NCBI RefSeq assembly: GCF_056712565.1
Contig: NZ_CM160072.1
Length of the DNA stretch: 64,000 nucleotides
Direction: 5' to 3' (one strand)
Of the stretch, positions 18,101-51,754 are shown piece after piece. Position 1 is the stretch's first letter. Each line of letters begins with the position of its first letter. The position numbers and the translations under genes were made by a program. The notes beneath the pieces are model-generated. The model saw only the letters and a program-made list of their open reading frames with translations, searched no databases and was not told where the DNA came from.

Positions 18101-18106
18101 AACCAT

Positions 18107-18135: not shown

Positions 18136-18140
18136 TCAAT

Positions 18141-20131: not shown

Positions 20132-20414
20132 AACTTAAAACAGCTTAGATCCTTGTTCGCCAGAAAGTTTCATCCATTTTCTTCCACCCAGGTTGCGGAA
20201 GAACCACTTTTCATCCGTCGTTGACAGATGTGAAGTATGCGGGAGAAAAAGTGAATATCTAACTGTAATAACTCAGACCGGTACGAGTACCCGGGACGTC
20301 TACAATCATTCAGGGCAAAGTGCTAAAATTTCTCTATCCCGGGATGCCCCTACCAACGCAGCACTCCCGGAGATATCATTACAGCTCTACAACTGATTTC
20401 CGCGACTGAACCGC

Positions 20415-20825: not shown

Positions 20826-21214
20826 ATTTCCTCCTGAGTTGTCCGGGGAATACTGAATCCTCCGGTCTGGCAGTGTGTGCAGTACCGCTCCCCATAATAA
20901 TCGTGGTGACATTGTCTGCAGTGCCAGCTGGCTTTACGCACCACGGGTAAGGCATCCGGTACGAATTGCTGCAGACGTTTAATCAACTGTATTTCTCTGC
21001 GCTCCGGCCTGACATAAGGGCACTGTTGACCGTGCTCTGTCAGCCTGTCGTCAGTGTGTTCAAACCAGGGAAGTTCAGTGTCGTATTGCGGATGGTATCT
21101 GAGTGCACTGCCACACAAGTGGCAGGTGTAGTGAGCATAAGGTGCGGCCTGTACAGTACGGGCGCCCGTCAGACGTCCGTTGCTATCAAGAGCGAGAAAG
21201 GATTTTGCGTACAT
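20813..21214 (-). CDS. Cys-rich zinc-ribbon protein (paralog 1 of a tandem pair)
   Basis: 133 aa, CHLCGSALRYHPQYDTELPWFEH ... CRQCHHDYYGERYCTHCQTG; stop overlaps the start of the next gene. Confidence 0.5.
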   Translation of the reverse strand: MYAKSFLALDSNGRLTGARTVQAAPYAHYTCHLCGSALRYHPQYDTELPWFEHTDDRLTEHGQQCPYVRPERREIQLIKRLQQFVPDALPVVRKASWHCRQCHHDYYGERYCTHCQTGGFSIPRTTQEEICEF

Positions 21215-21379
21215 AGTATATGTTCCTTACCGTCAGACGACACGCAGGCAACAGCCGTCCCGGTACGGGCAGCGTGGTCAGGTGTGAATGGCGGTTTCAG
21301 TTCAGTCTCATAAGGGAAAATCAGTGTGGTGGCCATGAACACGTCATCACACTGAAGTCAGATAACTCGTCTGTCTGGC

Positions 21380-21949
21380 TCAGCCACGACTGCAGCCAAA
21401 GTTGCGCTCACCGGTGCAGTGAGCTTTGGTATGCTCCTTCGCCAGATAGTCAGCACGTTCCAGCACTTGCTGAAAGCCGGTGTCATCATTACGCGCCAGC
21501 CACACCGCCGGCCAGGCCGGAAAATGCACCAGCGTGGCATGGCATCCGGCATCCACCCCCAGGGCACTGCACCAGGCCTGTTCAATCATTCCGGCCAGTG
21601 ATCCCGGAGCGCGGTAATCACCGGCACGACACCAGGTATCCCGGTTGACCAGCAGCATCAGATGATAGTGTTTTTTACCTTTGCACTCCCCAAACTCCCG
21701 GGCCCAGACGTAATGCAGAGTGGTGGGATGCACGCGTTTACCTTCCCGATGCTTACGTTTCTGGTAAGCGTCGATTCGGGCTTTCAGGGCATTGATGAAG
21801 CGGGATATCACAGCTGCGTCCGTTGCTGCCGGTACATCCGGGAAACGCAGGTCAACCCGCAATGCCGTCAGGCGGGGATGAACATTCAGTGCGTGCCGCA
21901 CTGTCTCACGAATACGTTGCTGCCAGAAGGGGTTGTATTTGTAGGTCAT
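21380..21949 (-). CDS. YagK/YfjJ-family (inovirus Gp2-like) prophage protein; alternative GTG start at 21985
   Basis: MTYKYNPFWQQRIRETV... recalled as the N-terminus of the cryptic-prophage YagK/YfjJ family; GGAG 8 nt upstream of ATG at 21949. Confidence 0.5.
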   Translation of the reverse strand: MTYKYNPFWQQRIRETVRHALNVHPRLTALRVDLRFPDVPAATDAAVISRFINALKARIDAYQKRKHREGKRVHPTTLHYVWAREFGECKGKKHYHLMLLVNRDTWCRAGDYRAPGSLAGMIEQAWCSALGVDAGCHATLVHFPAWPAVWLARNDDTGFQQVLERADYLAKEHTKAHCTGERNFGCSRG

Positions 21950-22145
21950 GGTTAAATCTCCGTATGGTTCATACGGAATAGCCACGTCGTAAAAAATGCG
22001 CAGAGTCCCTGAAGTGACCTCCGGCAGGGCACTGTCTCAGGCACTCTGTGATAACCCGAACGGTCGTCTCCGGACTGACGGTTGAATTTTCAGCGTTGTT
22101 TTTTTAATGTAAAAAACCGGTTACGGGTAAGGCTGTGAGGAGGGA

Positions 22146-22349
22146 GTGATGGTGATACGCAAAAAGAAGTGCAGGGACTGTGGAAACGCGATTACTCATA
22201 ATACAGTGTGTTGCCCGTATTGTGGTTCTGTCGACCCCTTCGGCTATTACCGGAATACAGACCGTATCGTTACCATACTGCTGGCACTGATTATTGTGGT
22301 CCTGCTGACTACTGTCAGCGTCAGTGTGTATATACTGTGTAGCTGGTGA
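22146..22349 (+). CDS. small zinc-ribbon membrane protein
   Basis: CRDCGNAITHNTVCCPYCGS followed by one hydrophobic helix (IVTILLALIIVVLLTTVSVSVYIL). Confidence 0.4.
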   Translation: MMVIRKKKCRDCGNAITHNTVCCPYCGSVDPFGYYRNTDRIVTILLALIIVVLLTTVSVSVYILCSW

Positions 22350-23528
22350 GATAACGGTTCATGTATCCCCTGAGCTGACAGTGTACCGGGTATATTAAGC
22401 GTAACCGACAGGTTCTCCTTCATACCATATTAAATTTTTCCAGGTATTGCCGCTGCCTTATTTCGTCCCATACAGGAAAACTCGTCTGGGTTTCTGACAA
22501 ATACGCGAAACTCACAGCCCCTCAATATCAACCACACGCCGTAAGCCGGTAATACCTGAAAATCAGTCTATTACCGCCCGCGCCTCCGTTACCGAACGCT
22601 CAGGTGACAAGACTGAAGCCAGCACGCACTCGTAAAATTTGCGGTCAGTTCTGCCAGCCGGTTGTCAACGGCAGAGTTAAAGGCTTCCAGCTCCGCAAGG
22701 GTAAGTTTATAACGCGTGTGGGAATTCACTTTTCCCGCGTCTCCTGACGTATTACGGGCTGCCACTTACCTGGTGTCCCGCAATACAGCCTTAGTGTTCC
22801 GTTATCGGGGATCCGGACGCACCGCAACAACCGGGGAAGTATTTCTGGTTAGAGCAGTGTCAAGAGGGATTTCTCAGCCCCTCACTCACCGGCTCAGTCT
22901 CAGGGCAGGAGCATTAATACGCTCAGTTCATGTCTTATACAGGAATGGGCATAGGGGGAGCTGGCGTGTCACTGCTGATTTTACGCATCAGCGTTCATGT
23001 ATTTGCACTCTGATACAGAATGCTTCACAGCGCTCTGTTACCGGAGAGATTTACTCTCTTAGGTTATTCTGGCAAATCCTTTACGTTACTCTCTGATGAC
23101 TTCTTATATTTATAATACCAATCAGACAACCTTATCCCATCGGTGATATCAGTCTCCTGCTCGCCAGGAACGGGCTGACTCACTGTAACCACCTCCGAAA
23201 ACAACTCTGCAATTATCAGAACGCCTGCTTCTCTCCCTGTCCTCACGAAAACTATCCCCTCTTTATCGCGCGTGCGTGCGGAAGCATCTTTTCGCACCCC
23301 CGTTACTTTATTCGTACCCCTTATAATGGGGTGTTAGCCAGCCAGACCCGGCATGATTACTGCCCCCAGTCGTCCATGATCCGGGGGGTGATGTCACCGG
23401 GTCTGGTGGGGCGCTGGTAACCGCTAATAGGGGTCAGGTCAGGCACTTTTGCCGGGACCGTCTGTAACGTGGATGCCGGTACCTGCTCCCCGTGGTTATC
23501 TGGTTAACCCATATACAAGGGAGACAGA

Positions 23529-24725
23529 ATGACCGAATCCAGCGATTACGAATCCGTCCAGGTCTTTATCGGCGTTGATGTCGGTAAAGATACGCATCAC
23601 GCTGTAGCCATTAATCGTTCAGGTAAACGCCTGTTCGATAAAGCATTACCCAACGACGAAAACAAACTCAGGTCGCTAATATCTGACCTGAAACAACATG
23701 GTCAGATACTGCTGGTTGTTGATCAGCCAGCTACCATCGGTGCGTTACCTGTCGCCGTTGCCCGCTCAGAAGGAGTCCTTGTCGGATACCTCCCTGGACT
23801 GGCCATGCGCCGCATAGCCGACTTACACGCCGGTGAAGCTAAAACTGATGCTCGTGACGCTGCCATCATTGCCGAAGCTGCCCGTACCCTGCCTCACGCG
23901 CTACGCACGCTGAAACTGGCTGACGAGCAAATCGCCGAACTCTCCATGCTCTGCGGCTTCGATGATGATCTTGCCGCACAGACAACGCAGGCCAGCAACC
24001 GTATCCGCGGCCTTCTGACCCAGATACATCCGGCACTGGAGCGCGTTCTCGGTCCGAGACTTGATCACCCGGCGGTACTCGATCTTCTCCAGCGATATCC
24101 CTCACCAGAAAAACTCGCTTCGCTGGGTGAGAAGAAGCTGGCAGCCCAGCTCTGCAAACTTGCGCCTCGTCTGGGTAAACGCCTTGCAGCAGACATAGCT
24201 CAGGCACTGGCCGAACAAACCGTCGTCGTTCCCGGCACGAATGCCGCTGCCGTAGTACTGCCACGTCTGGCACTCCAGCTCATCACGCTGCGTAAGCAAA
24301 GAGACGAGGTGGCGCTTGCGGTAGAACAGCGAGTTCTTGCTCACCCTCTTTACCCGGTCCTGACCAGTATGCCCGGAGTCGGTGTCAGGACCGCAGCCAG
24401 ACTCCTCACCGAGGTCGCCTGCCGCGCCTTCGCCTCTGTCGCACATCTCGCTGCTTATGCTGGCCTTGCGCCGGTAACTCGGCGATCCGGCTCGTCAATA
24501 CGCGGTGAGCATCCCTCGCGACGGGGTAATAAAGCTCTCAAACGGGCGTTGTTCCTGTCGGCCTTCGCCGCGCTCAGGGATCCGCTCTCCAGGGCTTACT
24601 ACACCCGCAAAATGAGTCAGGGAAAACGACACAATCAGGCGCTTATCGCCCTGGCGAGACGACGCTGCGACGTTCTGTTCGCCATGATGCGCGACGGGAC
24701 TTTTTATACCCCGCAGGCGTCATAA
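23529..24725 (+). CDS. IS110-family transposase/recombinase (second, unrelated copy)
   Basis: 398 aa, N-terminal VFIGVDVGKDTHHAVAI and C-terminal PGVGVRTAARLL motif typical of the IS110 family. Confidence 0.8.
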   Translation: MTESSDYESVQVFIGVDVGKDTHHAVAINRSGKRLFDKALPNDENKLRSLISDLKQHGQILLVVDQPATIGALPVAVARSEGVLVGYLPGLAMRRIADLHAGEAKTDARDAAIIAEAARTLPHALRTLKLADEQIAELSMLCGFDDDLAAQTTQASNRIRGLLTQIHPALERVLGPRLDHPAVLDLLQRYPSPEKLASLGEKKLAAQLCKLAPRLGKRLAADIAQALAEQTVVVPGTNAAAVVLPRLALQLITLRKQRDEVALAVEQRVLAHPLYPVLTSMPGVGVRTAARLLTEVACRAFASVAHLAAYAGLAPVTRRSGSSIRGEHPSRRGNKALKRALFLSAFAALRDPLSRAYYTRKMSQGKRHNQALIALARRRCDVLFAMMRDGTFYTPQAS

Positions 24726-24920
24726 CATGCTTGACAACTTAATAGGGGCACCCCCCGGGATTCCGCTACGGCTCTGCCATCGCAATCCCCCCGTTTATCT
24801 CCGGACAGCCAGATTCCCGATTATTTTTTACGTTTCTCCCCGGTTGTTATGCCGGTGAAGGTGGCGCGCTGTTTTCATGACCACACCGGCTGGTTTAACA
24901 ACATCCGGAGGAACATTCTC

Positions 24921-25127
24921 ATGGCTACCCCAGTTTCGCTGATGGATGACCAGATGGTCGACATGGCGTTTATCACTCAACTGACCGGCTTAACCGATAA
25001 GTGGTTTTACAAACTCATCAAAGTTGGGGGCTTTCCTGCCCCCATCAAAATGGGGCGCAGCTCCCGCTGGCTGAAAAGTGAAGTGGAAGCCTGGCTGCAG
25101 GCGCGTATTGCACAGTCCCGTCCGTAA
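24921..25127 (+). CDS. AlpA-family prophage transcriptional regulator
   Basis: Short HTH protein ...AFITQLTGLTDKWFYKLIKVGGFPAPIKMGRSSRWLKSEVEAWL typical of AlpA. Confidence 0.65.
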   Translation: MATPVSLMDDQMVDMAFITQLTGLTDKWFYKLIKVGGFPAPIKMGRSSRWLKSEVEAWLQARIAQSRP

Positions 25128-25205
25128 TTTTTAACCACTAACCCTTCGCCCAAAGCAGACGCAATCTCCGGCCTGCCGGCGGCGCTCTGCTGCCTGTTAT
25201 CCCCC

Positions 25206-25823
25206 GTGAGGAATATGAAAATGAAACAACAGTATCAGACCCGTTACGAGCTGCTCCATGAAAACTACCAGAAATGGCTGACCGGCTTCACCCGGCACGC
25301 CGTATCATGGGGCGTGTGTCATCCGAATATCTACTATTTCCATAATCTGACGCCCGGGTGGGTGTCATTCAATGGCGAAAAACCGGAGATTGCCATCGTT
25401 CCCCAGAGTCTGCACCGGCTGATTTATGGTCCGGACAAACGGAGCTCCCCGTCCCTGGATGATGATCTGGTGGTGAATTTATGCACCAGCGAACACCTGC
25501 TGATTCATCATCCGATGCTGGAAGGGATCCTGCTGTCTGAATGTGAGCGCCTGAAGCAACATTCTCTGGCAAACAAACTGATCAGCCTCTTCCGTCAGTT
25601 TGGCGGCACGGAGTTACGTCTCAAACTGGTCTGGCTCTGCTGGCTTGACTTAATGACCGGAAACAGCCTTGACGACTGGACGAAAAACCTGAAACACAAA
25701 TCAGAAAAAGATCTGGAGCAATGGATCATTGCACGTCAGGGTCAGAGTGAACCACTGACAAATCTGATGGATCAGTACGTGCTTATGGCATACCGTACAT
25801 CGGTTGATGCCGCTCACAGTTGA
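25206..25823 (+). CDS. hypothetical protein
   Basis: 205-aa ORF next to the alpA-like gene; no recognisable motif. Confidence 0.35.
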   Translation: MRNMKMKQQYQTRYELLHENYQKWLTGFTRHAVSWGVCHPNIYYFHNLTPGWVSFNGEKPEIAIVPQSLHRLIYGPDKRSSPSLDDDLVVNLCTSEHLLIHHPMLEGILLSECERLKQHSLANKLISLFRQFGGTELRLKLVWLCWLDLMTGNSLDDWTKNLKHKSEKDLEQWIIARQGQSEPLTNLMDQYVLMAYRTSVDAAHS

Positions 25824-26782
25824 TGTCTGATAACCACAGGGCTGGCAGCAGAAAACCAGCCCTGTGGTAAAATACAGTAATAGCGGCGTACATCAGGCAC
25901 GCCGCTCACTCGTCCACAGATCATATACGTCATTATACTGCGCGATAACGGAGGGCTTCAGCACCCGGTCATTTCTGAGCGGGTATGAATACCATTGATG
26001 ATGCGAAGCAGCCACGGGCAGAAACGTTCTTCACAACCAGGTGCCTCCATCTTCACTGCAGGCTGAATGTGCCGGCTTGTTATCCACCAGAAATGGTATG
26101 CTCCGGTACATGCATACCCCGGAGACTATAAACGCACTGAATCATAGCCTCCCACCTCAGCAGGAGGCAGTCAGCTTTCAGGCGGAAAAACGTTGCAGTT
26201 AAAGATCGTGAGAATCGCTGTTTCGTTGCATAGCAACCCGAACAGTTGTAGTTGAAACATTTTACCTGCATCAGCACATGGTCAGGCGCCGTCTGTATGG
26301 CGTGGAATACTGATGTTTCGGCTGATGGCAAGCCTCATTCTCTGTGGAAACAGGGGCGCGCATTAGCTTCTCAACCAGAGAGTGTCACAAAGACAAATAT
26401 TGCTGAAAATCGCATTCATCGTTCAGGCGTGAATGCCCGGAGACAAAAGCCGCTGTCCGCACAGCCCCCCTCTGATCTGAACAAAAAGCATACACACAAC
26501 AGGCTCACCTGACCCCGAAAAACCATAACTTCAGCAATACCAGTGACACCAGCACGTTACCTCAGTGCCACATCTTCAGACCGCGATCAATCTGAAATGT
26601 GACTATCGGGGCAATATCCCAGTTTTGTGGTACACGATAACCAGAAAACATCCCCTGAACCGCCAGCCAGAAAGACCGGCCACAAAAGGGTTAAGCTGAA
26701 ATCGTTTATGGATTACATCGACATATGCCTGGCAGAGAATGTCCGGAATGACGAGGTTATCTTTGCGGAGATTAAGGCAATG

Positions 26783-28922
<2,140 letters not shown>

Positions 28923-37594: not shown

Positions 37595-38029
37595 ATGAAT
37601 CCGTCTGATGCCATTGAGGCAATTGAAAAACCGCTCTCCTCCCTGCCTTACCCGATTTCCCGTCACATCCTGGAACATCTGCGCAAACTCACCCGTCACG
37701 AACCCGTGCCTGGCATTATGGGTAAAAGCGGGGCCGGTAAATCCTCACTCTGTAATGCACTGTTTCAGGGGGAGGTCACCCCGGTCAGTGCACTCATGAC
37801 AGTGCTTCCCGGACATGCCGCCATCCATCTGATGACACGCCTGCAGGACGAACTGCGCACGGAGTCTGTCCGCACTCAGACCCGTGAACAGTTTACCGGT
37901 GCGGTGGACCGGATATTTGACACGGCGGAGAGTGTCTGCATTGCCTCTGTTGCACGCACGGTTCTGCGCGCCGTCCGTGACTCGGTGGTCTCTGTTGCCC
38001 GCGCGGTATGGAACTGGATTTTCTTCTGA
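37595..38029 (+). pseudogene. yeeP: yeeP/yfjP-type prophage GTPase with an internal in-frame deletion of the GTPase core
   Basis: N-terminus with P-loop GIMGKSGAGKSSLCNALFQGEV and C-terminal tail ...VSVARAVWNWIFF are present, but the G3-G5 region is missing (145 aa instead of about 290). Confidence 0.55.
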
Positions 38030-38116
38030 ACCCGGTGGTGATGTACCAGGCTGTTGTTACAGATTTTTAACTCCATGAAAACACTATGCAAACGCAGCCA
38101 TACCCGGGGTGTCCCC

Positions 38117-41533: not shown

Positions 41534-42600
41534 GTACAGAAATGAAAACGGGGCTGGTGCTGTCCGGTGGCGGGGCGGTGGGCGCTTATCAGGCGGGAGT
41601 GGTTAAGGCACTGGCAGAGTGTGGTACACAGATCAGCATGGTTTCAGGGGCCAGCATTGGCGCATTCAATGGTGCCATTATCGCGGCCTCTCCCGATCTG
41701 TCAGAAGCTGCCGTACGCCTGGAGGCGCTCTGGGATCATCTGGGGAATAATCAGGTGCTGTCGGTAAACCGATTGGTTTACTTTTCATTGCTGAAAAAAT
41801 TGTTCCAGGCAATGAACCTCTGCCAGATCCCCGGACGTGCAGGAGCACTGCTTACGACGCTTCTTCGCCATATATCGATACTCAACGGGTTTGACAATCT
41901 GATGGCTCAGCCGTTGTTGTCAGATGAGCCCCTGACAGCGCTGTTGGATCATTATCTTGATACTGATGCTCTGGCAGACGGGCTACCGCTGTATGTGTCG
42001 CTGTACCCCACAGAAGGGGGCATGCAGGATATTATTGACTGCATTCGTGCTGAACTGGGTGCCGGAACCACGAAAAACGCCGTTTTTCAGCATATCCAGA
42101 GCCTGCCCCGCGGACAGCAGAAAGAGGCTCTGCTTGCGTCAGCCGCGCTGCCCCTGCTGTTCCGTCCCCGTGAGGTTCAGGGGACAATGTTCGGTGATGG
42201 TGGTATGGGAGGATGGCGAAATATGCAGGGAAATACCCCTGTGACGCCTCTGGTCGATGCCGGATGCAATATGGTGATTGTGACGCATCTGAGTGACGGT
42301 TCTTTATGGGATCGCCAGGCTTTTCCGGACACCACAATCCTTGAGATCCGTCCCCGGAAAAGGCTGAAATATGCAGGTGATGGTGACAACAGCGGCGGTC
42401 TGCTCAGTTTCACGTTGGCACATACCGACGCCTGGCGTCAGCAGGGCTATGAAGACACGATGCTGACGATGGAGCATATCCGGAAACCGCTGGCAGCACG
42501 TCAGGTACTGTCCCGGTCAGAAACGGTGTTGCAGAAAAGTCTGGAGATAACGGAAGAGGCAGATTTGGCACTGAGAAACGCGATGGCCCGGATTAAATAA
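41530..42600 (+). CDS. patatin-like phospholipase
   Basis: 356 aa; glycine-rich oxyanion loop LSGGGAVGAYQAG, nucleophile elbow GASIG (GxSxG), catalytic-Asp DGG motif (FGDGGMGG); ATGA overlap with the preceding gene. Confidence 0.8.
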   Translation: MSTEMKTGLVLSGGGAVGAYQAGVVKALAECGTQISMVSGASIGAFNGAIIAASPDLSEAAVRLEALWDHLGNNQVLSVNRLVYFSLLKKLFQAMNLCQIPGRAGALLTTLLRHISILNGFDNLMAQPLLSDEPLTALLDHYLDTDALADGLPLYVSLYPTEGGMQDIIDCIRAELGAGTTKNAVFQHIQSLPRGQQKEALLASAALPLLFRPREVQGTMFGDGGMGGWRNMQGNTPVTPLVDAGCNMVIVTHLSDGSLWDRQAFPDTTILEIRPRKRLKYAGDGDNSGGLLSFTLAHTDAWRQQGYEDTMLTMEHIRKPLAARQVLSRSETVLQKSLEITEEADLALRNAMARIK

Positions 42601-42617
42601 AGACGCCCCAAAGAAAC

Positions 42618-42641
42618 GCCACCGCCTGTGGTGGTGTTTTT
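42618..42641 (+). terminator. rho-independent terminator after the patatin gene
   Basis: Hairpin gccaccgcctgtggtggtg followed by ttttt. Confidence 0.55.
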
Positions 42642-42930
42642 CCTGGCTGGTGTTATTGAAAATATTTTCAGATATATATTACCTGAGAGAAAGTTTTACC
42701 CCTCACCTGTCAATTCACTCACTGGAAATTTAATTATGCAATTACCTGTAAAGTTATTAATGAGCCTTATATCTCTGGTCAGCGTTATTGCACGTGCCGG
42801 GAAATATAAAAATTACATCCGGGATGAAATAAAATACTGGCGATATACATCATACAAGGGGGGGGAATTTCCGGAAGGTTTCACTGATGAGAAATTTTCC
42901 AGCGCCATTTACAACGGAAGAATATTTACA

Positions 42931-43413
42931 ATGAAACGTTTACATACCCTGATGTTATTTCTGGCGGTTCTGTTTACTGGCTTTAACGTGGAAGCAGCGA
43001 GCGTGAAACAAGCGCTCAGCTGCGACCCAAACGCCCGGGCTGAACAACCTGGAGCGTGTCCAACAACGTACGAGTTGTACGAAGGTGACGCTGCCTACAA
43101 AGCTGCGCTTGACAAAGCATTAAAACCGGTCGGACTGAGCGGCATGTTCGGTAAAGGCGGGTATATGGATGGCCCTGGCGGAAACGTAACGCCAGTAACC
43201 ATTAACGGTACAGTCTGGCTCCAGGGCGACGGTTGCAAAGCCAATACCTGCGGCTGGGACTTTATCGTAACACTCTATAACCCAAAAACCCATGAAGTCG
43301 TTGGCTACCGCTACTTTGGTTTAGATGACCCGGCCTACCTGGTTTGGTTCGGCGAAATTGGCGTGCATGAATTCGCGTATCTGGTGAAAAACTACGTAGC
43401 TGCGGTTAACTAA
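42931..43413 (+). CDS. secreted protein, possibly Ivy-like (inhibitor of vertebrate lysozyme) fold
   Basis: Signal peptide MKRLHTLMLFLAVLFTGFNVEA; Cys pair in GDGCKANTCGWDF reminiscent of the Ivy CKPHDCG loop; assignment tentative. Confidence 0.4.
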   Translation: MKRLHTLMLFLAVLFTGFNVEAASVKQALSCDPNARAEQPGACPTTYELYEGDAAYKAALDKALKPVGLSGMFGKGGYMDGPGGNVTPVTINGTVWLQGDGCKANTCGWDFIVTLYNPKTHEVVGYRYFGLDDPAYLVWFGEIGVHEFAYLVKNYVAAVN

Positions 43414-43428
43414 TTTAAGGAGTCTGTC

Positions 43429-43839
43429 ATGAAAACTTTTATCAAAACTTTACTCGTTGCTGTAACTATTCTGTTCTCTGTCTTCGCTACGGCGAAACAA
43501 GTAAAACTGCCAAACAACATCAAATACGTTAATACTACAGAGGCGTTTTCCTGTACTGAGATTGACGGTATGAATTGCCAGACGAAGAATCCGTTTAACT
43601 ATAAAGATAACAGCTATGTTTTCGTGCTTGAACGTGGTGGTGCCTGGTGTTACGACTACACTGTCTCGGTACTTAACCTGAAAACCGGGAAAGCACAGAT
43701 GCTCGAATACAAAGACAACCAGCTGTGCTCAGGTAGCAACAAACCGTTCTTCGAAATCAAAAATGGCGTACCGACGGTAGGAGTCATCGACACATCCGGA
43801 AAACCTGTCGTTGTGGCTCTGGACAAACTTAAAACCTGA
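43429..43839 (+). CDS. small secreted cysteine-containing protein, function unknown
   Basis: Signal peptide MKTFIKTLLVAVTILFSVFATA, 136 aa, RBS aaggag upstream. Confidence 0.5.
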   Translation: MKTFIKTLLVAVTILFSVFATAKQVKLPNNIKYVNTTEAFSCTEIDGMNCQTKNPFNYKDNSYVFVLERGGAWCYDYTVSVLNLKTGKAQMLEYKDNQLCSGSNKPFFEIKNGVPTVGVIDTSGKPVVVALDKLKT

Positions 43840-43980
43840 GGAGTAAACCATGCGTTTCTCTGCACATTATTAATATCAAAGGTAAATACAGCCCCAGCCA
43901 TTGTTGCCGGAAAGCCGCTTAATGCGTGGCTCGCCAGTGAAAGGCTTCTCAGACAATAAACCTCATTCATTTCACCCGTC

Positions 43981-44016
43981 AGGCCGCGTCTTCTCCGGGA
44001 GACGTGGCTTTTTTCA
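43981..44016 (+). terminator. rho-independent terminator after the secreted-protein pair
   Basis: Hairpin around ccgcgtcttctccgggagacgtgg followed by cttttttc. Confidence 0.5.
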
Positions 44017-44059
44017 TTTATTACACCAGTAAATCTTAACCACCGATAAGGAGCAAAGT

Positions 44060-44881
44060 ATGCGATTAGCAAGTCGTTTTGGTTATGCTGCAAACCAGAT
44101 ACGTCGTGACCGTCCACTGACACATGAAGAGCTGATGCACCATGTGCCGGGGATTTTCGGGGAAGAGAAACACACGTCCCGAAGCCAGAACTATACGTAC
44201 ATCCCCACCATCACCGTACTGGAAAATCTGCAGCGGGAAGGCTTTCAGCCGTTCTTCGCCTGCCAGACCCGTGTGCGCGACCAGAGCCGCCGGGAATATA
44301 CCAAACATATGCTGCGTCTGCGGCGGGCCGGACAGATAACCGGTCAGCATGTGCCTGAAATTATTCTGCTCAACTCCCATGACGGTTCATCCAGCTACCA
44401 GATGTTACCCGGATATTTTCGTGCCATTTGTACCAATGGCCTGGTCTGCGGTCAGTCGCTGGGAGAAGTCCGGGTGCCACACCGGGGAAACGTGGTGGAC
44501 AGGGTCATAGAAGGTGCTTACGAAGTGGTGGGCGTGTTTGACCTGATTGAGGAAAAGCGTGATGCCATGCAGTCGCTGGTCCTGCCGCCACCGGCACGCC
44601 AGGCGCTGGCACAGGCGGCGCTGACTTACCGTTATGGTGATGAACATCAGCCCGTCACCACTACCGACATTCTGACGCCACGACGCCGGGAGGATTACGG
44701 TAAGGACCTGTGGAGTGCTTATCAGACCATCCAGGAGAATATGCTGAAAGGCGGGATTTCCGGTCGCAGTGCCAGAGGAAAACGTATCCATACCCGGGCC
44801 ATTCACAGCATCGATACCGACATTAAGCTCAACCGGGCGTTGTGGGTGATGGCAGAAACGCTGCTGGAGAGCCTGCGCTGA
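44060..44881 (+). CDS. DUF932-family cryptic-prophage protein (YfjQ-like)
   Basis: 273 aa; position and size match the DUF932 gene preceding the antirestriction/RadC genes in CP4-57-type elements. Confidence 0.5.
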   Translation: MRLASRFGYAANQIRRDRPLTHEELMHHVPGIFGEEKHTSRSQNYTYIPTITVLENLQREGFQPFFACQTRVRDQSRREYTKHMLRLRRAGQITGQHVPEIILLNSHDGSSSYQMLPGYFRAICTNGLVCGQSLGEVRVPHRGNVVDRVIEGAYEVVGVFDLIEEKRDAMQSLVLPPPARQALAQAALTYRYGDEHQPVTTTDILTPRRREDYGKDLWSAYQTIQENMLKGGISGRSARGKRIHTRAIHSIDTDIKLNRALWVMAETLLESLR

Positions 44882-44971
44882 TACCGTTTCCCTGAAAGCG
44901 CAGTCCTGTTCACGGCTGTCCCTTCCCCCAGACATTCCACCATTCATTTACTTTTTATAAGGAATAATCTC

Positions 44972-45457
44972 ATGACAACCTCTTCGCATAATTCCACCAC
45001 ACCTTCTGTTTCCGTGGCCGCTGCATCAGGGAATAACCAGTCTCAGTTGGTTGCCACTCCCGTCCCTGATGAACAGCGCATCAGCTTCTGGCCGCAGCAT
45101 TTTGGCCTCATTCCACAGTGGGTCACCCTGGAGCCCCGTGTCTTCGGCTGGATGGACCGTCTGTATGAAGACTACTGCGGTGGTATCTGGAATCTGTACA
45201 CCCTGAACAACGGTGGCGCATTTATGGCACCCGAACCGGATGACGATGATGACGAAACATGGGTACTGTTCAATGCCATGAACGGTAACCGCGCTGAAAT
45301 GAGCCCGGAAGCCGCCGGCATTGCTGCCTGTCTGATGACGTACAGTCATCACGCCTGCCGTACGGAGTGTTATGCCATGACGGTTCATTATTACCGTCTG
45401 CGGGATTACGCCCTGCAACATCCGGAATACGACGCCATTATGCGCATCATTGACTGA
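44972..45457 (+). CDS. antirestriction protein (KlcA/ArdB-like, YfjX/YafX family)
   Basis: 161 aa; conserved position upstream of the RadC-like gene; family assigned from recall of WPQHFGLIPQW-type motifs. Confidence 0.55.
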   Translation: MTTSSHNSTTPSVSVAAASGNNQSQLVATPVPDEQRISFWPQHFGLIPQWVTLEPRVFGWMDRLYEDYCGGIWNLYTLNNGGAFMAPEPDDDDDETWVLFNAMNGNRAEMSPEAAGIAACLMTYSHHACRTECYAMTVHYYRLRDYALQHPEYDAIMRIID

Positions 45458-45472
45458 AAGGGGGCAGGAACA

Positions 45473-45949
45473 ATGCAACAGATTTCCTTTCTGCCCGGAG
45501 AGATGACGCCCGGCGAGCGCAGTCTCATTCTGCGGGCCCTGAAAACCCTGGACCGTCATCTTCATGAACCCGGTGTGGCCTTCACCTCCACCCGTGCGGC
45601 ACGGGAATGGCTGATTCTGAACATGGCGGGACTGGAGCGTGAAGAATTCCGGGTGCTATATCTGAATAACCAGAATCAGCTGATTGCCGGTGAAACCCTC
45701 TTCACCGGCACCATCAACCGCACGGAAGTCCATCCCCGGGAAGTGATTAAATGCGCCCTGTATCACAATGCCGCAGCCGTGGTGCTGGCACACAATCACC
45801 CGTCCGGTGAAGTCACACCCAGTAAGGCAGACCGGCTTATCACCGAACGTCTGGTACAGGCACTGGGCCTGGTGGATATCCGGGTGCCGGACCATCTGAT
45901 AGTCGGTGGCAGCCAGGTTTTCTCCTTTGCGGAACACGGCCTGCTTTAA
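45473..45949 (+). CDS. yeeS: RadC-like JAB/MPN-domain protein
   Basis: JAMM motif HNHPSGEVTPSKAD; 158 aa. Confidence 0.8.
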   Translation: MQQISFLPGEMTPGERSLILRALKTLDRHLHEPGVAFTSTRAAREWLILNMAGLEREEFRVLYLNNQNQLIAGETLFTGTINRTEVHPREVIKCALYHNAAAVVLAHNHPSGEVTPSKADRLITERLVQALGLVDIRVPDHLIVGGSQVFSFAEHGLL

Positions 45950-46017
45950 CCCGTCACCGCCACAATCACATCACACCTGTTTTCACTTTTATCTTCTGTC
46001 TTCAAAGGTATCCTATT

Positions 46018-46239
46018 ATGAAAATTATCACCCGTGGTGAAGCCATGCGTATTCACCAACAACATCCGACATCCCGTCTTTTTCCGTTCTGTACCGGTAA
46101 ATACCGCTGGCACGGCAGTGCTGAAGCGTATACCGGTCGTGAAGTGCAGGATATTCCCGGTGTGCTGGCCGTGTTTGCTGAACGCCGTAAGGACAGTTTT
46201 GGCCCGTATGTCCGACTGATGAGCGTCACCCTGAACTGA
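46018..46239 (+). CDS. yeeT: DUF987 prophage protein YeeT-like
   Basis: 73-aa ORF at the conserved position before the cbeA/cbtA pair. Confidence 0.6.
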   Translation: MKIITRGEAMRIHQQHPTSRLFPFCTGKYRWHGSAEAYTGREVQDIPGVLAVFAERRKDSFGPYVRLMSVTLN

Positions 46240-46312
46240 GTGGGAATTCTGATGAGCAGAATTATCGCCACCACCGGACCATTCTTAACCGATTTTCTGT
46301 AGGGATTTTATC

Positions 46313-46681
46313 GTGTCAGACACACTCCCCGGGACAACACTTCCCGACGACAATCACGACCGCCCCTGGTGGGGGCTACCCTGCACCGTGACGCCCTGTT
46401 TCGGCGCCCGTCTGGTGCAGGAGGGTAACCGGTTGCATTACCTTGCCGACCGTGCCGGTATCAGAGGCCTGTTCAGCGATGCAGATGCGTACCACCTGGA
46501 CCAGGCCTTTCCGTTGCTGATGAAACAACTGGAGCTCATGCTCACCAGTGGTGAACTCAGCCCCCGCTATCAGCATACCGTCACGCTGTATGCGAAAGGA
46601 CTGACCTGCGAAGCCGATACCCTGGGCTCCTGTGGTTACGTTTATCTGGCTGTTTATCCGACGCCCGAAATGAAAAATTAA
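46313..46681 (+). CDS. cbeA: cytoskeleton-bundling-enhancing antitoxin CbeA (YeeU)
   Basis: 122 aa, directly upstream of the CbtA-like toxin gene; size and context match. Confidence 0.7.
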   Translation: MSDTLPGTTLPDDNHDRPWWGLPCTVTPCFGARLVQEGNRLHYLADRAGIRGLFSDADAYHLDQAFPLLMKQLELMLTSGELSPRYQHTVTLYAKGLTCEADTLGSCGYVYLAVYPTPEMKN

Positions 46682-46769
46682 CTCTCCAGAATAGCCTTCT
46701 GCTACGGCCTGGTGTTTTCACCACGCAACTTTCCCATTTTTATATCTGCATATCAGGAAAATCTTCAGT

Positions 46770-47144
46770 ATGAAAACATTACCTGTATTACCCGGGCAGG
46801 CGGCCAGTTCTCGCCCGTCTCCTGTTGAAATCTGGCAGATACTGCTGTCCCGACTGCTGGACCAGCACTACGGCCTCACACTGAATGACACACCGTTTGC
46901 CGATGAACGTGTGATTGAGCAGCATATTGAGGCAGGCATTTCACTGTGTGATGCGGTGAACTTTCTCGTGGAAAAATACGCGCTGGTGCGTACCGACCAG
47001 CCGGGATTCAGCGCCTGTACCCGCACTCAGTTAATAAACAGCATCGATATCCTCCGGGCTCGCAGGGCGACCGGCCTGATGACCCGCGACAATTACAGAA
47101 CGGTAAATAACATTACCCTGGGTAAGTATCCGGAGGCGAAATGA
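46770..47144 (+). CDS. cbtA: cytoskeleton-binding toxin CbtA (YeeV)
   Basis: 124 aa; position after cbeA and overlapping yeeW start. Confidence 0.7.
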   Translation: MKTLPVLPGQAASSRPSPVEIWQILLSRLLDQHYGLTLNDTPFADERVIEQHIEAGISLCDAVNFLVEKYALVRTDQPGFSACTRTQLINSIDILRARRATGLMTRDNYRTVNNITLGKYPEAK

Positions 47145-47335
47145 TGACACTGGAAGCCGACAGCGTTAACGTACAGGCGCTGGATATGGGGCACATTGTC
47201 GTTGACATTGATGGTGTTAATATCACTGAACTGATTAATAAGGCCGCTGAAAACGGTTATTCACTCCGCGTGGTGGATGGCCGTGACTCTACCGAAACAC
47301 CGGCAACTTATGCCAGCCCTCACCAGTTGCTGTAA
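47141..47335 (+). CDS. yeeW: small prophage protein YeeW
   Basis: 64-aa ORF overlapping the cbtA stop by 4 nt. Confidence 0.55.
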   Translation: MMTLEADSVNVQALDMGHIVVDIDGVNITELINKAAENGYSLRVVDGRDSTETPATYASPHQLL

Positions 47336-47490
47336 GACAATGCAGTGATACAGGGTATAGTGCCATTAACCACAGAAACAGCACTGTTGTCCTGTATTAA
47401 GCAGGCAAGAGAAGATGTCCTTACCCTGCGCCATCTGCAGCTTCTGCACCAGAACCGGTGAATCTCACTCAACAGGCTTCATTTCCCCTG

Positions 47491-47521
47491 ACGCCAGCCT
47501 GAATACAGCTGGCGTTTTCAT
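47491..47521 (+). terminator. rho-independent terminator after the cbeA-cbtA-yeeW unit
   Basis: Hairpin acgccagcctgaatacagctggcgt followed by tttcattt. Confidence 0.55.
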
Positions 47522-47717
47522 TTATAAACAGAAAGGAAAACCGATAATAATGGAATGGACGCCCCGACCATGAAGCAACGGTAGGATATTACTGATAAAC
47601 CTTCCAGTGGAGGTGCGTTATGGCCGTTTTAACGATTAGCATTGACCTGACAAAAAATGAATTCCAAATCCACGGTCTGGGTAGGAACAGAAAAATCTAA
47701 GCTCAGAAAACGGATTA

Positions 47718-47878
47718 AAGTAAGCGTCAACGGAGCACCGTATTGACGCTTATTTATTGGTGAGAACTACGTTCCATGGCAGGAGTTCGTCAACACGGTT
47801 GGAGGGCCATTCCGGCAGTATGCTCAGAATATGGCGCAGATACGCTTCCGGATCGATACCGTTCAGACGGCAGGTGCC
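47718..47878 (-). mobile_element. IS66-family right-end remnant (in-frame transposase C-terminus plus terminal repeat), inverted copy of 13770..13949
   Basis: Reverse-complement translation GTCRLNGIDPEAYLRHILSILPEWPSNRVDELLPWNVVL; GTAAGCG terminus at 47718. Confidence 0.55.
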
Positions 47879-47889
47879 TGCTTTTCCGG

Positions 47890-48132
47890 CAACAAGCAGG
47901 AATCTCAGCGCTGAAGCAGGAATTAGAGGTAAAAACGCCCTACCGGGCCATGAATCACCCGGTCATTGGAGTAGTAACCAAAGCAGATTTAGCCAGCATG
48001 GAACAAATATCTTTGGTGAAAAGTTGGTTACGGGAAGCTGGAGCGCACAACGTGTTAGTAACCAGTGCAGTTAATAACAATGGAGTTACAGAACTTTTTG
48101 CCTTGCTGCATACAGAAGAAGGCTGTTGTTAA
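47890..48132 (+). pseudogene. yoeF: EutP/PduV-like GTPase C-terminal fragment (yoeF)
   Basis: ...NHPVIGVVTKADLASMEQISLVKSWLREAGAHNVLVTSAVNNNGVTELFALL resembles the C-terminus of EutP/PduV; no N-terminal P-loop present. Confidence 0.55.
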
Positions 48133-48187
48133 TTTCGATTGGTTCTCAGATGAGAATGATGACGGTGATACACAGATAAGAATCAAT

Positions 48188-48216
48188 GAGCAATGAGGGT
48201 TGCCGGGCAACCCTCA
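48188..48216. terminator. hairpin (aatgagggttgccgggcaaccctcatt) downstream of yeeX
   Basis: Perfect inverted repeat read in sequence. Confidence 0.45.
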
Positions 48217-48232
48217 TTGAATAAAACGGGAA

Positions 48233-48562
48233 TTACTTCGCTTCGCCGTTTTTCATTTCGCCCATAGCTTTCAGCTTTTTGGAGATATCGCGGCGTTCTT
48301 TGGAGAGCTCGGCATTTTTGATGATGTAATCGTCAACGCGATCTTCATAGTCACCTTTCATGCTGGCGATGATGCCCTGGATTGCTTCAACGCTCATCCC
48401 TGGCTTGATGTAATCGCTCAGGTTGTCCAGCAACAGGACGCGCTTCTGGTTGTCACGGATCTTTTTCTCAACGTCCTGAATTTCACGTTGCAGTTTGTTC
48501 TTACGACGGAACAGACGAACAAATTCCAGTACGTCCTGGAATGAAGGCTTGGTAGTTTCCAT
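48233..48562 (-). CDS. yeeX: UPF0265 protein YeeX
   Basis: [42 protein letters not shown]... 109 aa. Confidence 0.9.
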
Positions 48563-48733
48563 TTTTATACCCCTGATAATGTGAGAGTCGGATTCGTTTA
48601 AGCAACCGCTATTCGTTAGGGCCAACATTACTCATAGCTGCCGCAGATGACAATGCTTTTATCCCTTTTCACTATCATACCCTTTATCCTTGCTGAATCG
48701 AAGCAGCAGCAAGATGATTCTGAAGTTCAGGAA

Positions 48734-49792
48734 TTATTTGCGCAAGGCCCGGCAAATCAGATTCGATAGCAACTCAAGCTGATGTGCCGTTTCCATGTTC
48801 AGCCACACATAACCATAGATTGGTGTTTCCACGACTTTCAGATCATGGTGGTTATCGAGCAACTGACGCAGCTCTTCCACAGCATCGTTCAATTTTTCCG
48901 TATTGGCAAAAACCGGCTGCGGATTACCTTCGTACAGCGCATGAACAAGGCTCAGCAGTATTTGCTGCATCATGTGCTGGGTATCACGAAGTTTTTGCGC
49001 GTTCAATAACACGAAATGGCTGGGGCGCGTGGCCCAGTATGCATTGATTTGCAACTCCAGCATACAAACCAGATTGCGATTAATGGTCTGGATACCTTCA
49101 TATATCGATTTGGGAATACGGGTTTCTTTGCTGGCGGGCGCAATCAGCCCACGCATTTTCACGGCATCGGTCAGCAGTTTTTGTAGATGGCTTTCCAGAC
49201 GTGGGCGTTCGAGTAAGTTCGGTGAGAATGCAGATTGATAGACCCGATTATACTCGGTCAGACTTTTCGCCAGTTGAATGCGCCAGTGGATGAACGCCCG
49301 TTGTGGCCAGATACCGGTAAACAACATTGCCAGTAAAGAGCCGAGGATCACATCGCCGCTTCGCCATAACGCCGTATCAATTTCACCTGTCGGGGAACCC
49401 ACAACAATTGCCAGCGTCACCCCAATCAATAATCCTTGATACGGTTTCTTGCCCAGCGCCAGCCAACCGCAAAGAAACATCGCCGCCGCGCACCAGACTA
49501 ACATCAGCGGTAACGAAATTAACTCCAGTTGCAGAGCGATAAGACCTAAAATCGAACCCAACACCGTACCGCCAATACGTTCGAAGGCACGAGGGACAAC
49601 GTTCCCCCAGAACGAGATTGGCCCCATAATCACCACCATGGTGACCAGCGGCCAGGTGCTTTCCGGGATAGTAAACAGGCGGATAATGAGAAAAGTGAGC
49701 AGGAATGCCAGCGCGACCCGAGTACCATGCACAATGCGGTAATGGCGGTATACCCGGATTTCAAACGGGCTTAATGACTTATCGGCACGCAC
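48734..49792 (-). CDS. yeeA: inner-membrane protein YeeA (FUSC-like)
   Basis: 352 aa, N-terminal polytopic membrane domain. Confidence 0.85.
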   Translation of the reverse strand: MRADKSLSPFEIRVYRHYRIVHGTRVALAFLLTFLIIRLFTIPESTWPLVTMVVIMGPISFWGNVVPRAFERIGGTVLGSILGLIALQLELISLPLMLVWCAAAMFLCGWLALGKKPYQGLLIGVTLAIVVGSPTGEIDTALWRSGDVILGSLLAMLFTGIWPQRAFIHWRIQLAKSLTEYNRVYQSAFSPNLLERPRLESHLQKLLTDAVKMRGLIAPASKETRIPKSIYEGIQTINRNLVCMLELQINAYWATRPSHFVLLNAQKLRDTQHMMQQILLSLVHALYEGNPQPVFANTEKLNDAVEELRQLLDNHHDLKVVETPIYGYVWLNMETAHQLELLSNLICRALRK

Positions 49793-49989
49793 GCAGAAAC
49801 TCCGTAATGAAGATTAAAAGCGCTCATAACACATCTGTCGGCCAGAAGGCGCGCCTCTGAGTTATCCGACGGACATACCGGGAACAGTGTAATTTCCCGG
49901 CAGGAGCGAAAAATTTGAAAGGCGCATCTTACTCTTTTCGCTTTCAAAAAAAGAGTGGTCTTCGCGTCAACACACCGCCCTGAGATGAA

Positions 49990-50463
49990 TTAGTGATGTT
50001 TTGGCTGCACCGCAACATACATTTCGATATCCCAGTACCCATCTTCCGCGCCATTGTTCAAGTAAACCTCGAAGCAGGGCTTTGGTAACATTTCATAGGC
50101 ACTGTCCTGCAAGAGGCTATTAAAGAACTGATACCAGGGTTTAGCAAAATCATCACCGACTACACGAGCCACCGCCACCGCATACTGACCACCTGAAATT
50201 TCTGTCAGAATGACGCCCTCACTGTTTTCGGGGAGCGTAAAGTTATTCGGCACCGTCACGACGGTGTCGCAGCGTAATTTTTCGGCGGGTGTTTCATCTG
50301 GATTGTCGTAATAGACAGCAACCCACTCCTTCGGCACAATATTTTTGCTATCTATCCACATCATCAACTGCTCAAAGCCTTTCTTTACCGTCTGTTCCCA
50401 CGGGCCAACGAGATGGAAACCTGCAACGGTACGTTTATCTTCCTGCTTAATCTCGTAGTTCAT
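49990..50463 (-). CDS. sbmC: DNA gyrase inhibitor SbmC (GyrI)
   Basis: [36 protein letters not shown]... 157 aa. Confidence 0.9.
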
Positions 50464-50477
50464 GACGCCCCCATTAA

Positions 50478-50497
50478 TACTGTTTTTATATACAGTA
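50478..50497. promoter_or_regulatory. LexA (SOS) box upstream of sbmC
   Basis: tactgtttttatatacagta = CTGT-N8-ACAG palindrome just upstream of the sbmC start codon. Confidence 0.75.
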
Positions 50498-50581
50498 TAG
50501 TTGCAATATTAAAACCACAAGGAATGAGTGTTGATTATGCGAGCAGATTCGCACTCCTGCCAGTCTGCTGCAAAAGAAAGG

Positions 50582-51754
50582 TCAGTCCTTATGGTGGAAA
50601 TAATCACTCAGCCGGGAAAACATGCTGCCTTCCCCGACAGATTCCAGGGTAACCAGCGGCCAGTGCGCCACCTGTTTATCACGGTCGTAAAGTTCAATTT
50701 CCCCTACCCGCTGATGGGCGCTAATTGGCGCGGTGAGTTCTTTACCATCAAGGGTATATTTGGCTTTGATATGTGGAATTTCGGCTTTCGGTAGCACCAT
50801 CCAGAACTCTTGTTCCGTTCCCAGGGCGATATTTTCTTTATCGCCATACCAGATGCGTTCCGTACCAACCTTTTTCCCACGGTGCAAAATTTGCACCGTA
50901 GTAAAGTTTTGTTGACCCCAACGCAGTAATTTTCTTGCCTCTTCCTCACGACCTTTTGCGCTGTCAGCCCCCATTACCACTGCAATGAGACGACGCTGCC
51001 CATCTACAGCCGAAGCAATGAGATTAAACCCGGCACCAGAAGTATGACCCGTTTTCAGGCCGTCAACATTCATGGTTTTATCCCACAATAACCCGTTACG
51101 GTTTTGCTGGGTGATACCGTTCCAGGTGAGGCTTTTCTCACTGTACATATGATAAAACTCGGGCTCGCCGTGGATGATAGCGCGAGAAAGCACAGCTAAA
51201 TCATAAGCCGAGCTATGCTGGCCAGGTGCATCCAGACCATGCACTGTTTCAAAATGCGTATCCTTGAGATGCAGCTTCTCGGCATAGTTGTTCATCATTT
51301 CAACAAACTGCCGTTGCCCACCGGCAATATAGTCAGCCAGTGCAACACAAGCGTCATTTCCGGAATCCACAATTAAACCACGGCTTAAATCACGTACCGA
51401 TACGCGATCGCCCTCTTTCAAAAACATCAGTGAAGAACCGACAAACACCGGATTATCTTTCGCCCACGCATCACGCCCCACGGTGACAATATCGTCTGGC
51501 GTAATGCGATGACTATCGATAGCGCGATCCACGACATAGCCCGTCATCAGCTTTGTCAGGCTGGCGGGATTGCGCTGTTGATGCTCATTACCCGCGGTGA
51601 GAATCTGACCGGTGGTGTAATCCATCAATACCCAGGACCCGGCATGAATCTCTGGAGGTTGAGGTGAAAAAGGAATGTTTTCCGCCGCAAAACCAGACGA
51701 TAAATTAAAAACGAACAAAGAAGCAGCAATAATAAGACGGCGTTTCAACAGCAA
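50582..51754 (-). CDS. dacD: D-alanyl-D-alanine carboxypeptidase DacD (PBP6b)
   Basis: Signal peptide, active-site SxxK (PASLTK), SGN and KTG motifs. Confidence 0.9.
   Translation of the reverse strand: MLLKRRLIIAASLFVFNLSSGFAAENIPFSPQPPEIHAGSWVLMDYTTGQILTAGNEHQQRNPASLTKLMTGYVVDRAIDSHRITPDDIVTVGRDAWAKDNPVFVGSSLMFLKEGDRVSVRDLSRGLIVDSGNDACVALADYIAGGQRQFVEMMNNYAEKLHLKDTHFETVHGLDAPGQHSSAYDLAVLSRAIIHGEPEFYHMYSEKSLTWNGITQQNRNGLLWDKTMNVDGLKTGHTSGAGFNLIASAVDGQRRLIAVVMGADSAKGREEEARKLLRWGQQNFTTVQILHRGKKVGTERIWYGDKENIALGTEQEFWMVLPKAEIPHIKAKYTLDGKELTAPISAHQRVGEIELYDRDKQVAHWPLVTLESVGEGSMFSRLSDYFHHKD

Follow-up and report, generated by a model that had tools for sequence, protein, structure and literature searches.

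What is the block of seven co-oriented open reading frames (ORFs) on the plus strand at positions 44060-47521 of this 64,000-nucleotide stretch (the window, from contig NZ_CM160072.1), and what does it say about the genes around it? The original prediction had read it as the conserved tail module of a cryptic prophage and had taken its place beside a dynamin gene cassette as support for a defence/counter-defence island. We conclude with high confidence that it is the conserved end module of a CP4-type element, namely the CFT073 allele of the CP4-44 / GI-CFT073-cobU locus, that the element is an integrase-less and immobile relic, and that six of the module genes are intact and under purifying selection. 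Everything at the locus has been annotated or published, and it is therefore already known.

The identity of the locus follows from its setting. The 3.46-kb module is 100% identical to DNA of Escherichia coli CFT073, Nissle 1917, ATCC 25922 and other strains, and the RefSeq annotation of CFT073 gives the same genes under the same names. The whole window corresponds approximately to CFT073 2,320,304-2,384,303 (a coordinate offset of 2,320,303), beginning within cobU and ending within the his operon. Its island, which we take to be GI-CFT073-cobU, is bounded by cobU on one side and by tmaR(yeeX)-yeeA-sbmC-dacD-sbcB on the other, the slot that CP4-44 occupies in K-12. Window positions 1-2393 and 45497-51201 are collinear with K-12 DNA at 98-99% identity, the second of these stretches (5.7 kb) at 98%. 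Between them, K-12 carries yeeP', isrC, flu and yeeR leading into a shortened yeeS, and CFT073 carries a yeeP fragment followed by a dynamin-RdcB-patatin cassette, two hypothetical genes, a DUF905 remnant, a DUF932 gene and an ArdB gene. Since the yeeP fragment lies upstream of the dynamin gene, the cassette, DUF932 and ArdB hold the position of isrC-flu-yeeR in K-12. The fragment itself (37783-38032, just upstream of the dynamin gene) is 92% identical to the K-12 yeeP pseudogene, and isrC is absent from the window. Within the species the module is nearly universal: it is at least 80% covered in 4292 of 5426 complete E. coli genomes, in which it occupies a median of 3 places and a maximum of 17, with 8 in CFT073.

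Each of the seven genes that the original prediction had named (DUF932, antirestriction, RadC-like, yeeT, cbeA, cbtA and yeeW) matches its named Pfam family above the curated cut-off (Table 1). The antirestriction protein has the PF03230 domain and, judging from its closest matches, the ArdB fold as well: it matches PDB 2WJ9 at E 6e-95 with near-identity over residues 30-161, KlcA (2KMG) at E 1e-17, and a PHROG family of anti-restriction proteins at 1e-60. Entry 2WJ9 is presumably the CFT073 ArdB, and Serfiotis-Mitsa and colleagues are said to have found in 2010 that this protein and KlcA relieve type I restriction in vivo. YeeS matches PDB 2QLC (2e-25), and its translation contains the JAMM motif H-N-H-PSGEVTP-S-KA-D (H-x-H-x7-S-x2-D; AHNHPSGEVTPSKAD). 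RadC was the sole match in an NCBIfam scan of the module proteins; YeeS aligns only to positions 88-211 of the 212-position RadC model, the canonical N-terminal part being absent, and its score of 157.5 bits falls below the 180-bit cut-off of the RadC equivalog NF000642. We therefore rejected a canonical YicR-type RadC and regard YeeS as a JAB-only protein. The adjacent genes cbeA and cbtA follow yeeT in antitoxin-then-toxin order, with scores of 181.6 bits for PF06154 (cut-off 27) and 193 bits for PF06755 (cut-off 25). CbeA matches PDB 2H28 (YeeU) at 3e-81, and the CbtA translation retains R15 and F65, the contact residues needed for binding MreB and FtsZ, respectively (PMC5624674).

Table 1. 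Features of the module and of its two edges, in window coordinates (aa, amino acids; CDS, coding sequence; IS, insertion sequence)
Feature	Position	Strand	Evidence
DUF905 3' remnant, true left edge of conserved block	43905-43959	+	N1454 homology to last ~55 nt of DUF905 CDS including stop codon
13-pair GC-rich hairpin with T-run, terminator-like	43981-44010	+	Terminator scan; near-identity with N1454 copy
DUF932 protein (YfjQ/YafZ family), 273 aa	44060-44881	+	Pfam DUF932 8e-49
ArdB/KlcA-family antirestriction protein, 161 aa	44972-45457	+	Pfam Antirestrict PF03230 9e-36
yeeS, RadC-like JAB-only protein, 158 aa	45473-45949	+	Pfam RadC JAB 4e-44
yeeT, DUF987 protein, 73 aa	46018-46239	+	Pfam DUF987 2e-39; 100% aa identity to K-12 YeeT
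cbeA (yeeU), type IV antitoxin, 122 aa	46313-46681	+	Pfam CbeA_antitoxin 5e-54
cbtA (yeeV), cytoskeleton-binding toxin, 124 aa	46770-47144	+	Pfam CbtA_toxin 1e-57
yeeW, N-terminal third of DUF5983 gene	47141-47335	+	Pfam DUF5983_N 2e-29, sole Pfam match
DUF957 C-terminal remnant	47369-47461	+	tblastn to residues 36-65 of intact 65-aa DUF957 protein; PGAP pseudogene
Hairpin (~47491-47513) with T-run, likely transcript end	47491-47521	+	Sequence; fold
IS66-family transposase remnant at truncated right end	47720-47887	-	IS66 matches to query 951-1031; PGAP partial transposase
EutP/PduV remnant (yoeF), chromosomal flank	47950-48132	+	Pfam PduV-EutP 6e-13, C-terminal part of profile only; PGAP

The gene set is far beyond chance, and six of its genes are under purifying selection. 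By the Nei-Gojobori method, applied to orthologous and paralogous copies, the ratio of nonsynonymous to synonymous divergence (dN/dS) was 0.06-0.22 for DUF932 (0.11-0.13 in its own case), ArdB, the JAB gene, DUF987, CbeA and CbtA; these low values hold against close copies (dS 0.1-0.6) and against distant ones (dS >1). The yeeW fragment gave 0.55-0.62, as expected of a remnant. That the locus as a whole is a functionless, decaying remnant whose ORFs are intact solely because the relic is young is an explanation we consider very improbable. The high ratio of yeeW would suit it, as would the truncated right end, the lack of an annotated integrase and the IS remnants that flank the element. However, the six low ratios persist at distances where dS exceeds 1, all catalytic and binding motifs are intact, and the ORFs are preserved at 98% DNA identity between the phylogroup-distant strains K-12 and CFT073.

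Synonymous divergence between CFT073 and K-12 is a mosaic along 45473-47335 (yeeS 0.12, yeeT 0.04, cbeA 0.16, cbtA 0.02, yeeW 0), a pattern suggestive of recombination or gene conversion between paralogous copies, of which each genome holds several.

Comparison with the three K-12 elements placed the module more exactly. All seven proteins align with K-12 counterparts, and the reading of the block as the conserved module of CP4-44, CP4-57 and CP4-6 held, with equal gene order, 96-100% amino acid identity to CP4-44 and 57-80% to the other two. Taking CP4-44, CP4-57 and CP4-6 in turn, YeeS is 98%, 77% and 80% identical, YeeT (DUF987) 100%, 64% and 66%, CbeA 95.9%, 67% and 65%, and CbtA 99.2%, 64% and 57%; YeeW is 98.4% identical in CP4-44 and has no counterpart in CP4-57 or CP4-6. 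DUF932 and ArdB are absent from CP4-44; DUF932 is 74% identical both to YfjQ of CP4-57 and to YafZ of CP4-6, and ArdB is 69% and 68% identical to its relatives there. From these values yeeS to yeeW can be assigned as orthologues of the K-12 CP4-44 genes (yeeS-yeeT-cbeA-cbtA-yeeW, b2002-b2006) and as paralogues of the CP4-57 and CP4-6 sets. The likeness to CP4-44 extends to equal flanks, to the collinear DNA from 45497 and to a right end with the same truncated yeeW, DUF957', IS66' and yoeF, but in K-12 isrC-flu-yeeR lies directly upstream of a YeeS that is 10 amino acids shorter. CP4-57, with lfgABCDE (yfjX-yfjY-ypjJ-yfjZ-ypjF) and yfjQ, and CP4-6, with yafX-ykfG-ykfH-yafW-ykfI and yafZ, both keep the order ArdB, JAB, DUF987, antitoxin, toxin with DUF932 upstream; unlike the window, they have several cargo genes between DUF932 and ArdB. 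The equal gene order in all three agrees with Wen et al. (PMC5371832), who also give an antitoxin-toxin spacer of 20 nt in CP4-57 and CP4-6 as compared to 88 nt in the CP4-44 type, and who report that CP4-57 and CP4-6 retain an integrase and can excise.

The edges of the module were defined against an intact copy that lies beside tRNA-Ser (serX) at the end of an island in E. coli N1454. This copy matches 43908-47548 at 87-92% DNA identity and has the same order (DUF905, DUF932, ArdB, JAB, DUF987, then YeeU, CbtA, DUF5983 and DUF957); it differs in having a full DUF5983 (162 amino acids), a full DUF957 (65 amino acids) and DUF4942, and in adjoining the tRNA. An additional gene for a 227-amino-acid hypothetical protein lies between DUF987 and the antitoxin in N1454 (4846-5529 of the compared stretch) and is absent from K-12 and from the window, where the corresponding point is 46276-46285. 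The N1454 island, which also holds an Ag43 gene, further contains a type I restriction-modification (R-M) system with a DarT/DarG pair inserted between its S and R subunit genes (17897-27532 of another N1454 stretch that covers the island).

At the left, the conserved block starts at ~43905, ~155 bp before the start at 44060 that had first been given, and so takes in the last part of a DUF905 gene that ends with a stop codon at 43957-43959. The homology of other E. coli copies also breaks here (query ~2373-2400, window ~43902-43929). As the conserved block begins inside DUF905, the junction with the dynamin cassette is a recombination breakpoint and not a shared operon boundary. The terminator-like hairpin that comes after the DUF905 remnant and before the DUF932 ribosome-binding site could serve either to terminate DUF905 or to regulate DUF932.

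At the right, the element has lost its end. The assignment of yeeW stood, through its DUF5983_N match, but yeeW is a truncated fragment that aligns to residues 5-59 of the intact DUF5983 protein. Relative to N1454, a deletion of ~470 bp between 47278 and 47379 joins this fragment to the DUF957 remnant. The end of the module at 47521 coincides with the T-run behind a hairpin just past that remnant (fold of 47440-47540, -26.2 kcal/mol, z -2.3), and homology with the intact module stops at 47548. The intact right end of N1454 runs CbtA, DUF5983, DUF957, DUF4942, tRNA; DUF4942 is missing from the module in the window.

In N1454 as in the truncated copy, the DUF5983 gene and the stop end of cbtA share 4 nt (6381-6384 of the compared stretch and 47141-47144, respectively). 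An overlap kept in both copies implies translational coupling to the toxin, and the full-length DUF5983 protein could join the toxin-antitoxin pair as a third partner.

Searches for what would make the element mobile were negative. A tRNA scan of the 64-kb window found none, the RefSeq annotation of the CFT073 island and its flanks lists no integrase, and no gene for phage replication, regulation or structure appears in that of the island. The PHROG matches of the module are to accessory or unknown families only. A repeat search over 43400-48300 returned short repeats at chance level and no att-like direct repeat. Rfam, searched at the gathering threshold over the whole window and at E values up to 5 over 42500-48800, found nothing in the module, including no radC or STAXI-type motif; the sole match in the second search, to an internal ribosome entry site (IRES) family at E 3.9, was rejected as chance-level. 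According to a published report (PMC5371832), CP4-44 itself has no integrase and cannot excise. With DUF4942, the tRNA/att site and the integrase all missing, the locus is an immobile relic with a deleted right end, and the label of prophage that it had been given is corrected accordingly; the integrase that had been suggested as a check beyond the window is likewise missing from the annotated flanks.

The original prediction had also held that the module, through its antirestriction and toxin-antitoxin functions, supports reading the whole neighbourhood as a defence/counter-defence island. One part of this stands: the module marks a mobile-element backbone, and such islands can carry defence cargo. 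It does not, however, mark the function of its neighbours, and as drawn from the presence of the module the defence reading is weakly supported. In its strongest form, the module and the adjacent dynamin-RdcB-patatin cassette would be one functional island in which the antirestriction and toxin-antitoxin genes act with the cassette or inform on it, which we regard as improbable. The patatin-DUF932-ArdB arrangement is contiguous in 1791 of the 5426 genomes, and islands with the module do hold defence genes, among them the type I R-M system and DarTG of N1454 and abpAB and rnlAB of CP4-57. PADLOC, too, gave sub-threshold similarities in the cassette, of the dynamin gene to LeoBC (E 4e-6, 24 bits, with no stretch passing alone) and of the patatin gene to a phospholipase effector (E 9.5e-5), but these lie far below usable scores, and PADLOC had 0 matches for all seven module proteins. 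Moreover, the breakpoint inside DUF905 indicates that cassette and module have separate histories, and a terminator-like hairpin stands between them. In K-12 this module comes downstream of Ag43 (flu)-yeeR, and in N1454 downstream of Ag43-IrmA-DUF905 and the type I R-M/DarTG cluster. RefSeq names the middle gene of the cassette as RdcB family, a diguanylate-cyclase regulator, and annotates the remaining island with TonB receptors, an iron ATP-binding cassette transporter, sugar-metabolism genes, ibrAB-like genes and many IS elements. Within the module, only ArdB has a demonstrated anti-defence role, known from a paralogue. Different cargoes have recombined into the mobile-element backbone that the module marks, and the module is not usable as evidence that the dynamin-patatin cassette is a defence system.

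What the module itself may do can be proposed from characterised homologues, from which the following mechanisms are taken. It is probably one co-oriented transcription unit, because its genes are separated by gaps of 15-90 nt, cbtA and yeeW overlap by 4 nt, and hairpins bracket the whole (43981-44010 and ~47491-47520). DUF932, ArdB and the RadC-like JAB protein, from families common to the leading regions of conjugative plasmids, would form a half concerned with entry and establishment, and YeeT with the type IV toxin-antitoxin pair a half concerned with maintenance. CbeA would counter CbtA by way of the cytoskeletal filaments and not the toxin, so that loss of the island would be penalised; Masuda and colleagues reportedly found in 2012 that CbeA bundles these filaments and does not bind the toxin. 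CbtA, for its part, would bind FtsZ and MreB and so stop division and elongation, as described for CbtA (PMC5624674). The paralogues YkfI and YpjF are toxic as well, and their partner antitoxins neutralise them (PMC5371832); for the 99%-identical K-12 CbtA, both toxicity when expressed and neutralisation that involves no binding of the toxin are known (PMC5371832, PMC5624674). ArdB would block type I restriction in vivo, and YeeS may be a Zn metalloprotease like its CP4-57 paralogue YfjY/LfgB, a reported JAB protease that degrades the antitoxin MqsA (PMC10846083). The right-end deletion, which truncated DUF5983 and DUF957 and removed DUF4942, the att site and the tRNA, together with the lack of an integrase leaves the element an immobile relic.

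Several points weigh against this scheme. No sigma-70 site upstream of DUF932 stood out as convincing in a promoter scan, with promoter-like sites at the number expected from shuffled sequence; as the scan is uninformative, the single operon is deduced from the spacing of its genes and from the CP4-57 paper, in which yfjXY-ypjJ-yfjZ-ypjF is described as one operon (PMC10846083). The authors of that paper themselves note that LfgB was insoluble and that contamination by another protease had not been strictly ruled out (PMC10846083). DUF932 and DUF987 are of no known function, and for DUF932 no related structure has been solved. Since the element is unable to excise, whether it takes part in addiction or stabilisation is a moot question, and, with no relaxase, origin of transfer (oriT) or type IV secretion system (T4SS) annotated in the island, a role in establishment is historical at best.

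Alternatively, the genes might be kept by their use to the host and not by mobile-element biology, with the JAB protease tuning antitoxin or RpoS levels and CbtA/CbeA affecting oxidative-stress survival and biofilm. We judge such a domesticated stress module unlikely. Records with at least 99% identity to the truncated right end (cbtA-yeeW-DUF957') number 3346, and its coverage reaches at least 80% in 3745 of 5426 genomes, which fits vertical inheritance, and the genes are under purifying selection. Deletion of lfgB sensitises K-12 to H2O2, and LfgB degrades MqsA (PMC10846083); deletion of three toxin genes lowers oxidative-stress resistance (PMC5371832). These phenotypes, however, belong to CP4-57 paralogues or to K-12 strains lacking several genes at once, not to the CFT073-type copy, and those under acid and heat are modest (PMC10846083). 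The number of divergent copies that a genome holds (median 3, up to 17) and the presence of the genes on plasmids argue instead for selection on the mobile element.

This plasmid presence was uneven across the module. DUF932 homologues (~62% amino acid identity) occur in at least 5000 plasmid records, 89% of the matches listed being on conjugative plasmids, and RadC-JAB matches in 2334 records, 71% of them conjugative; CbtA matches occur in 66 plasmid records only, about half conjugative. We inspected the gene contexts of four plasmids by hand. Two IncF plasmids carry the DUF932 gene in their leading region, flanked by hok on one side and by an SLT gene/oriT/traM on the other, together with ssb, DUF905 and psiB, and the DUF932 context in a Serratia MOBF plasmid looks similar; in a Klebsiella plasmid the JAB gene lies upstream of the relaxase in a run with DUF4942, Hha and antirestriction genes. 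Leading regions have been described as anti-defence islands that mix anti-restriction, methyltransferase, SSB and toxin-antitoxin genes (PMC11541004). The module resembles them in its co-oriented small genes, including an antirestriction gene (KlcA/ArdB), a toxin-antitoxin pair and families of unknown function, and relatives of DUF932, DUF905, RadC-JAB, DUF4942 and Hha are found there. These shared DUF932, JAB and antirestriction contexts make the left half of the module resemble an establishment set of the leading-region type, and the toxin-antitoxin half appears specific to chromosomal islands. By contrast to the plasmids, the island has no oriT, relaxase, ssb or psiB in its RefSeq annotation and no recognised single-stranded-DNA (Frpo-type) promoter, Rfam having given nothing of note in 42500-48800, and its pair is CbtA/CbeA where theirs is Hok/Sok or HigBA. 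Since that annotation also lists no tra or mob gene and no T4SS, the plasmid link is one of resemblance and hypothesis, not membership. We therefore offer only tentatively, as possible but rather doubtful, the idea that the left half (DUF905', DUF932, ArdB and RadC-JAB, with DUF4942 in intact copies) is the island counterpart of a leading region, CP4-type islands being or having been mobilised by conjugation as single-stranded DNA, with early expression of this set serving to establish them. DUF932 would then be a factor of establishment or anti-defence that is so far uncharacterised.

DUF932 is in any case a very widespread protein of mobile elements, found on thousands of plasmids and in many phages, with an uncharacterised function and a fold for which no structure has been solved. 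An exhaustive search of representative sequences, at E values up to 1e-3, gave 5283 clusters at 50% identity; a word-indexed search, in which all of the 120 matches listed had at least 62% identity and most at least 74%, was unsuited to a deep alignment. Across an alignment of 86 sequences P30, C124, N126, H141 and G231 are invariant, and the near-invariant positions include H83, R86, R88, E100, N105 and H107. The AlphaFold2 model built from this alignment had a mean predicted local distance difference test (pLDDT) score of 94.2 and a predicted template modelling (pTM) score of 0.89. No sequence match was found in the PDB, and a Foldseek search of the PDB with the model returned a best E of 0.059 and template modelling (TM) scores below 0.25, so that no solved structural relative emerged. 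In BFVD at least 35 phage proteins, none of them characterised, share the fold, the matches being to DUF932, DUF945 and TIGR03299 phage proteins only. Two distant homologues lie on phage-like metagenomic contigs, one with a RadC gene 5 kb away; we set these contexts aside as evidence on the plasmid link, for which they count neither for nor against. A literature search on DUF932, YfjQ and YafZ found no functional study, and a paper on Nissle mentions a yfjQ copy solely as a differentially expressed gene. Because DUF932 lies beside oriT in the two inspected IncF plasmids, it is a reasonable target for work on leading-region anti-defence.

Some further features of the window lie outside the module. 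Between the patatin gene and the module, 43429-43839 encodes a 136-amino-acid hypothetical protein that matches phrog_8968 (E 9e-44, unknown function) and no Pfam family. In the left part of the island, RefSeq annotates an IbrB-like gene paired with a phosphoadenosine phosphosulfate (PAPS)-reductase (IbrA-like) gene on the minus strand at 4539-6391. A remnant of a cobalamin-biosynthesis (cbiP-like) gene lies beside cobU at 501-644 and the EutP/PduV remnant (yoeF) beside yeeX, and the two bracket the island; presumably the island was placed where a Salmonella-type cob/pdu cluster once lay. Beyond the island, Rfam at the gathering threshold identified two ordinary chromosomal features, the small RNA STnc240 (54963-55037, minus strand) and the histidine operon leader (57776-57899, plus strand).

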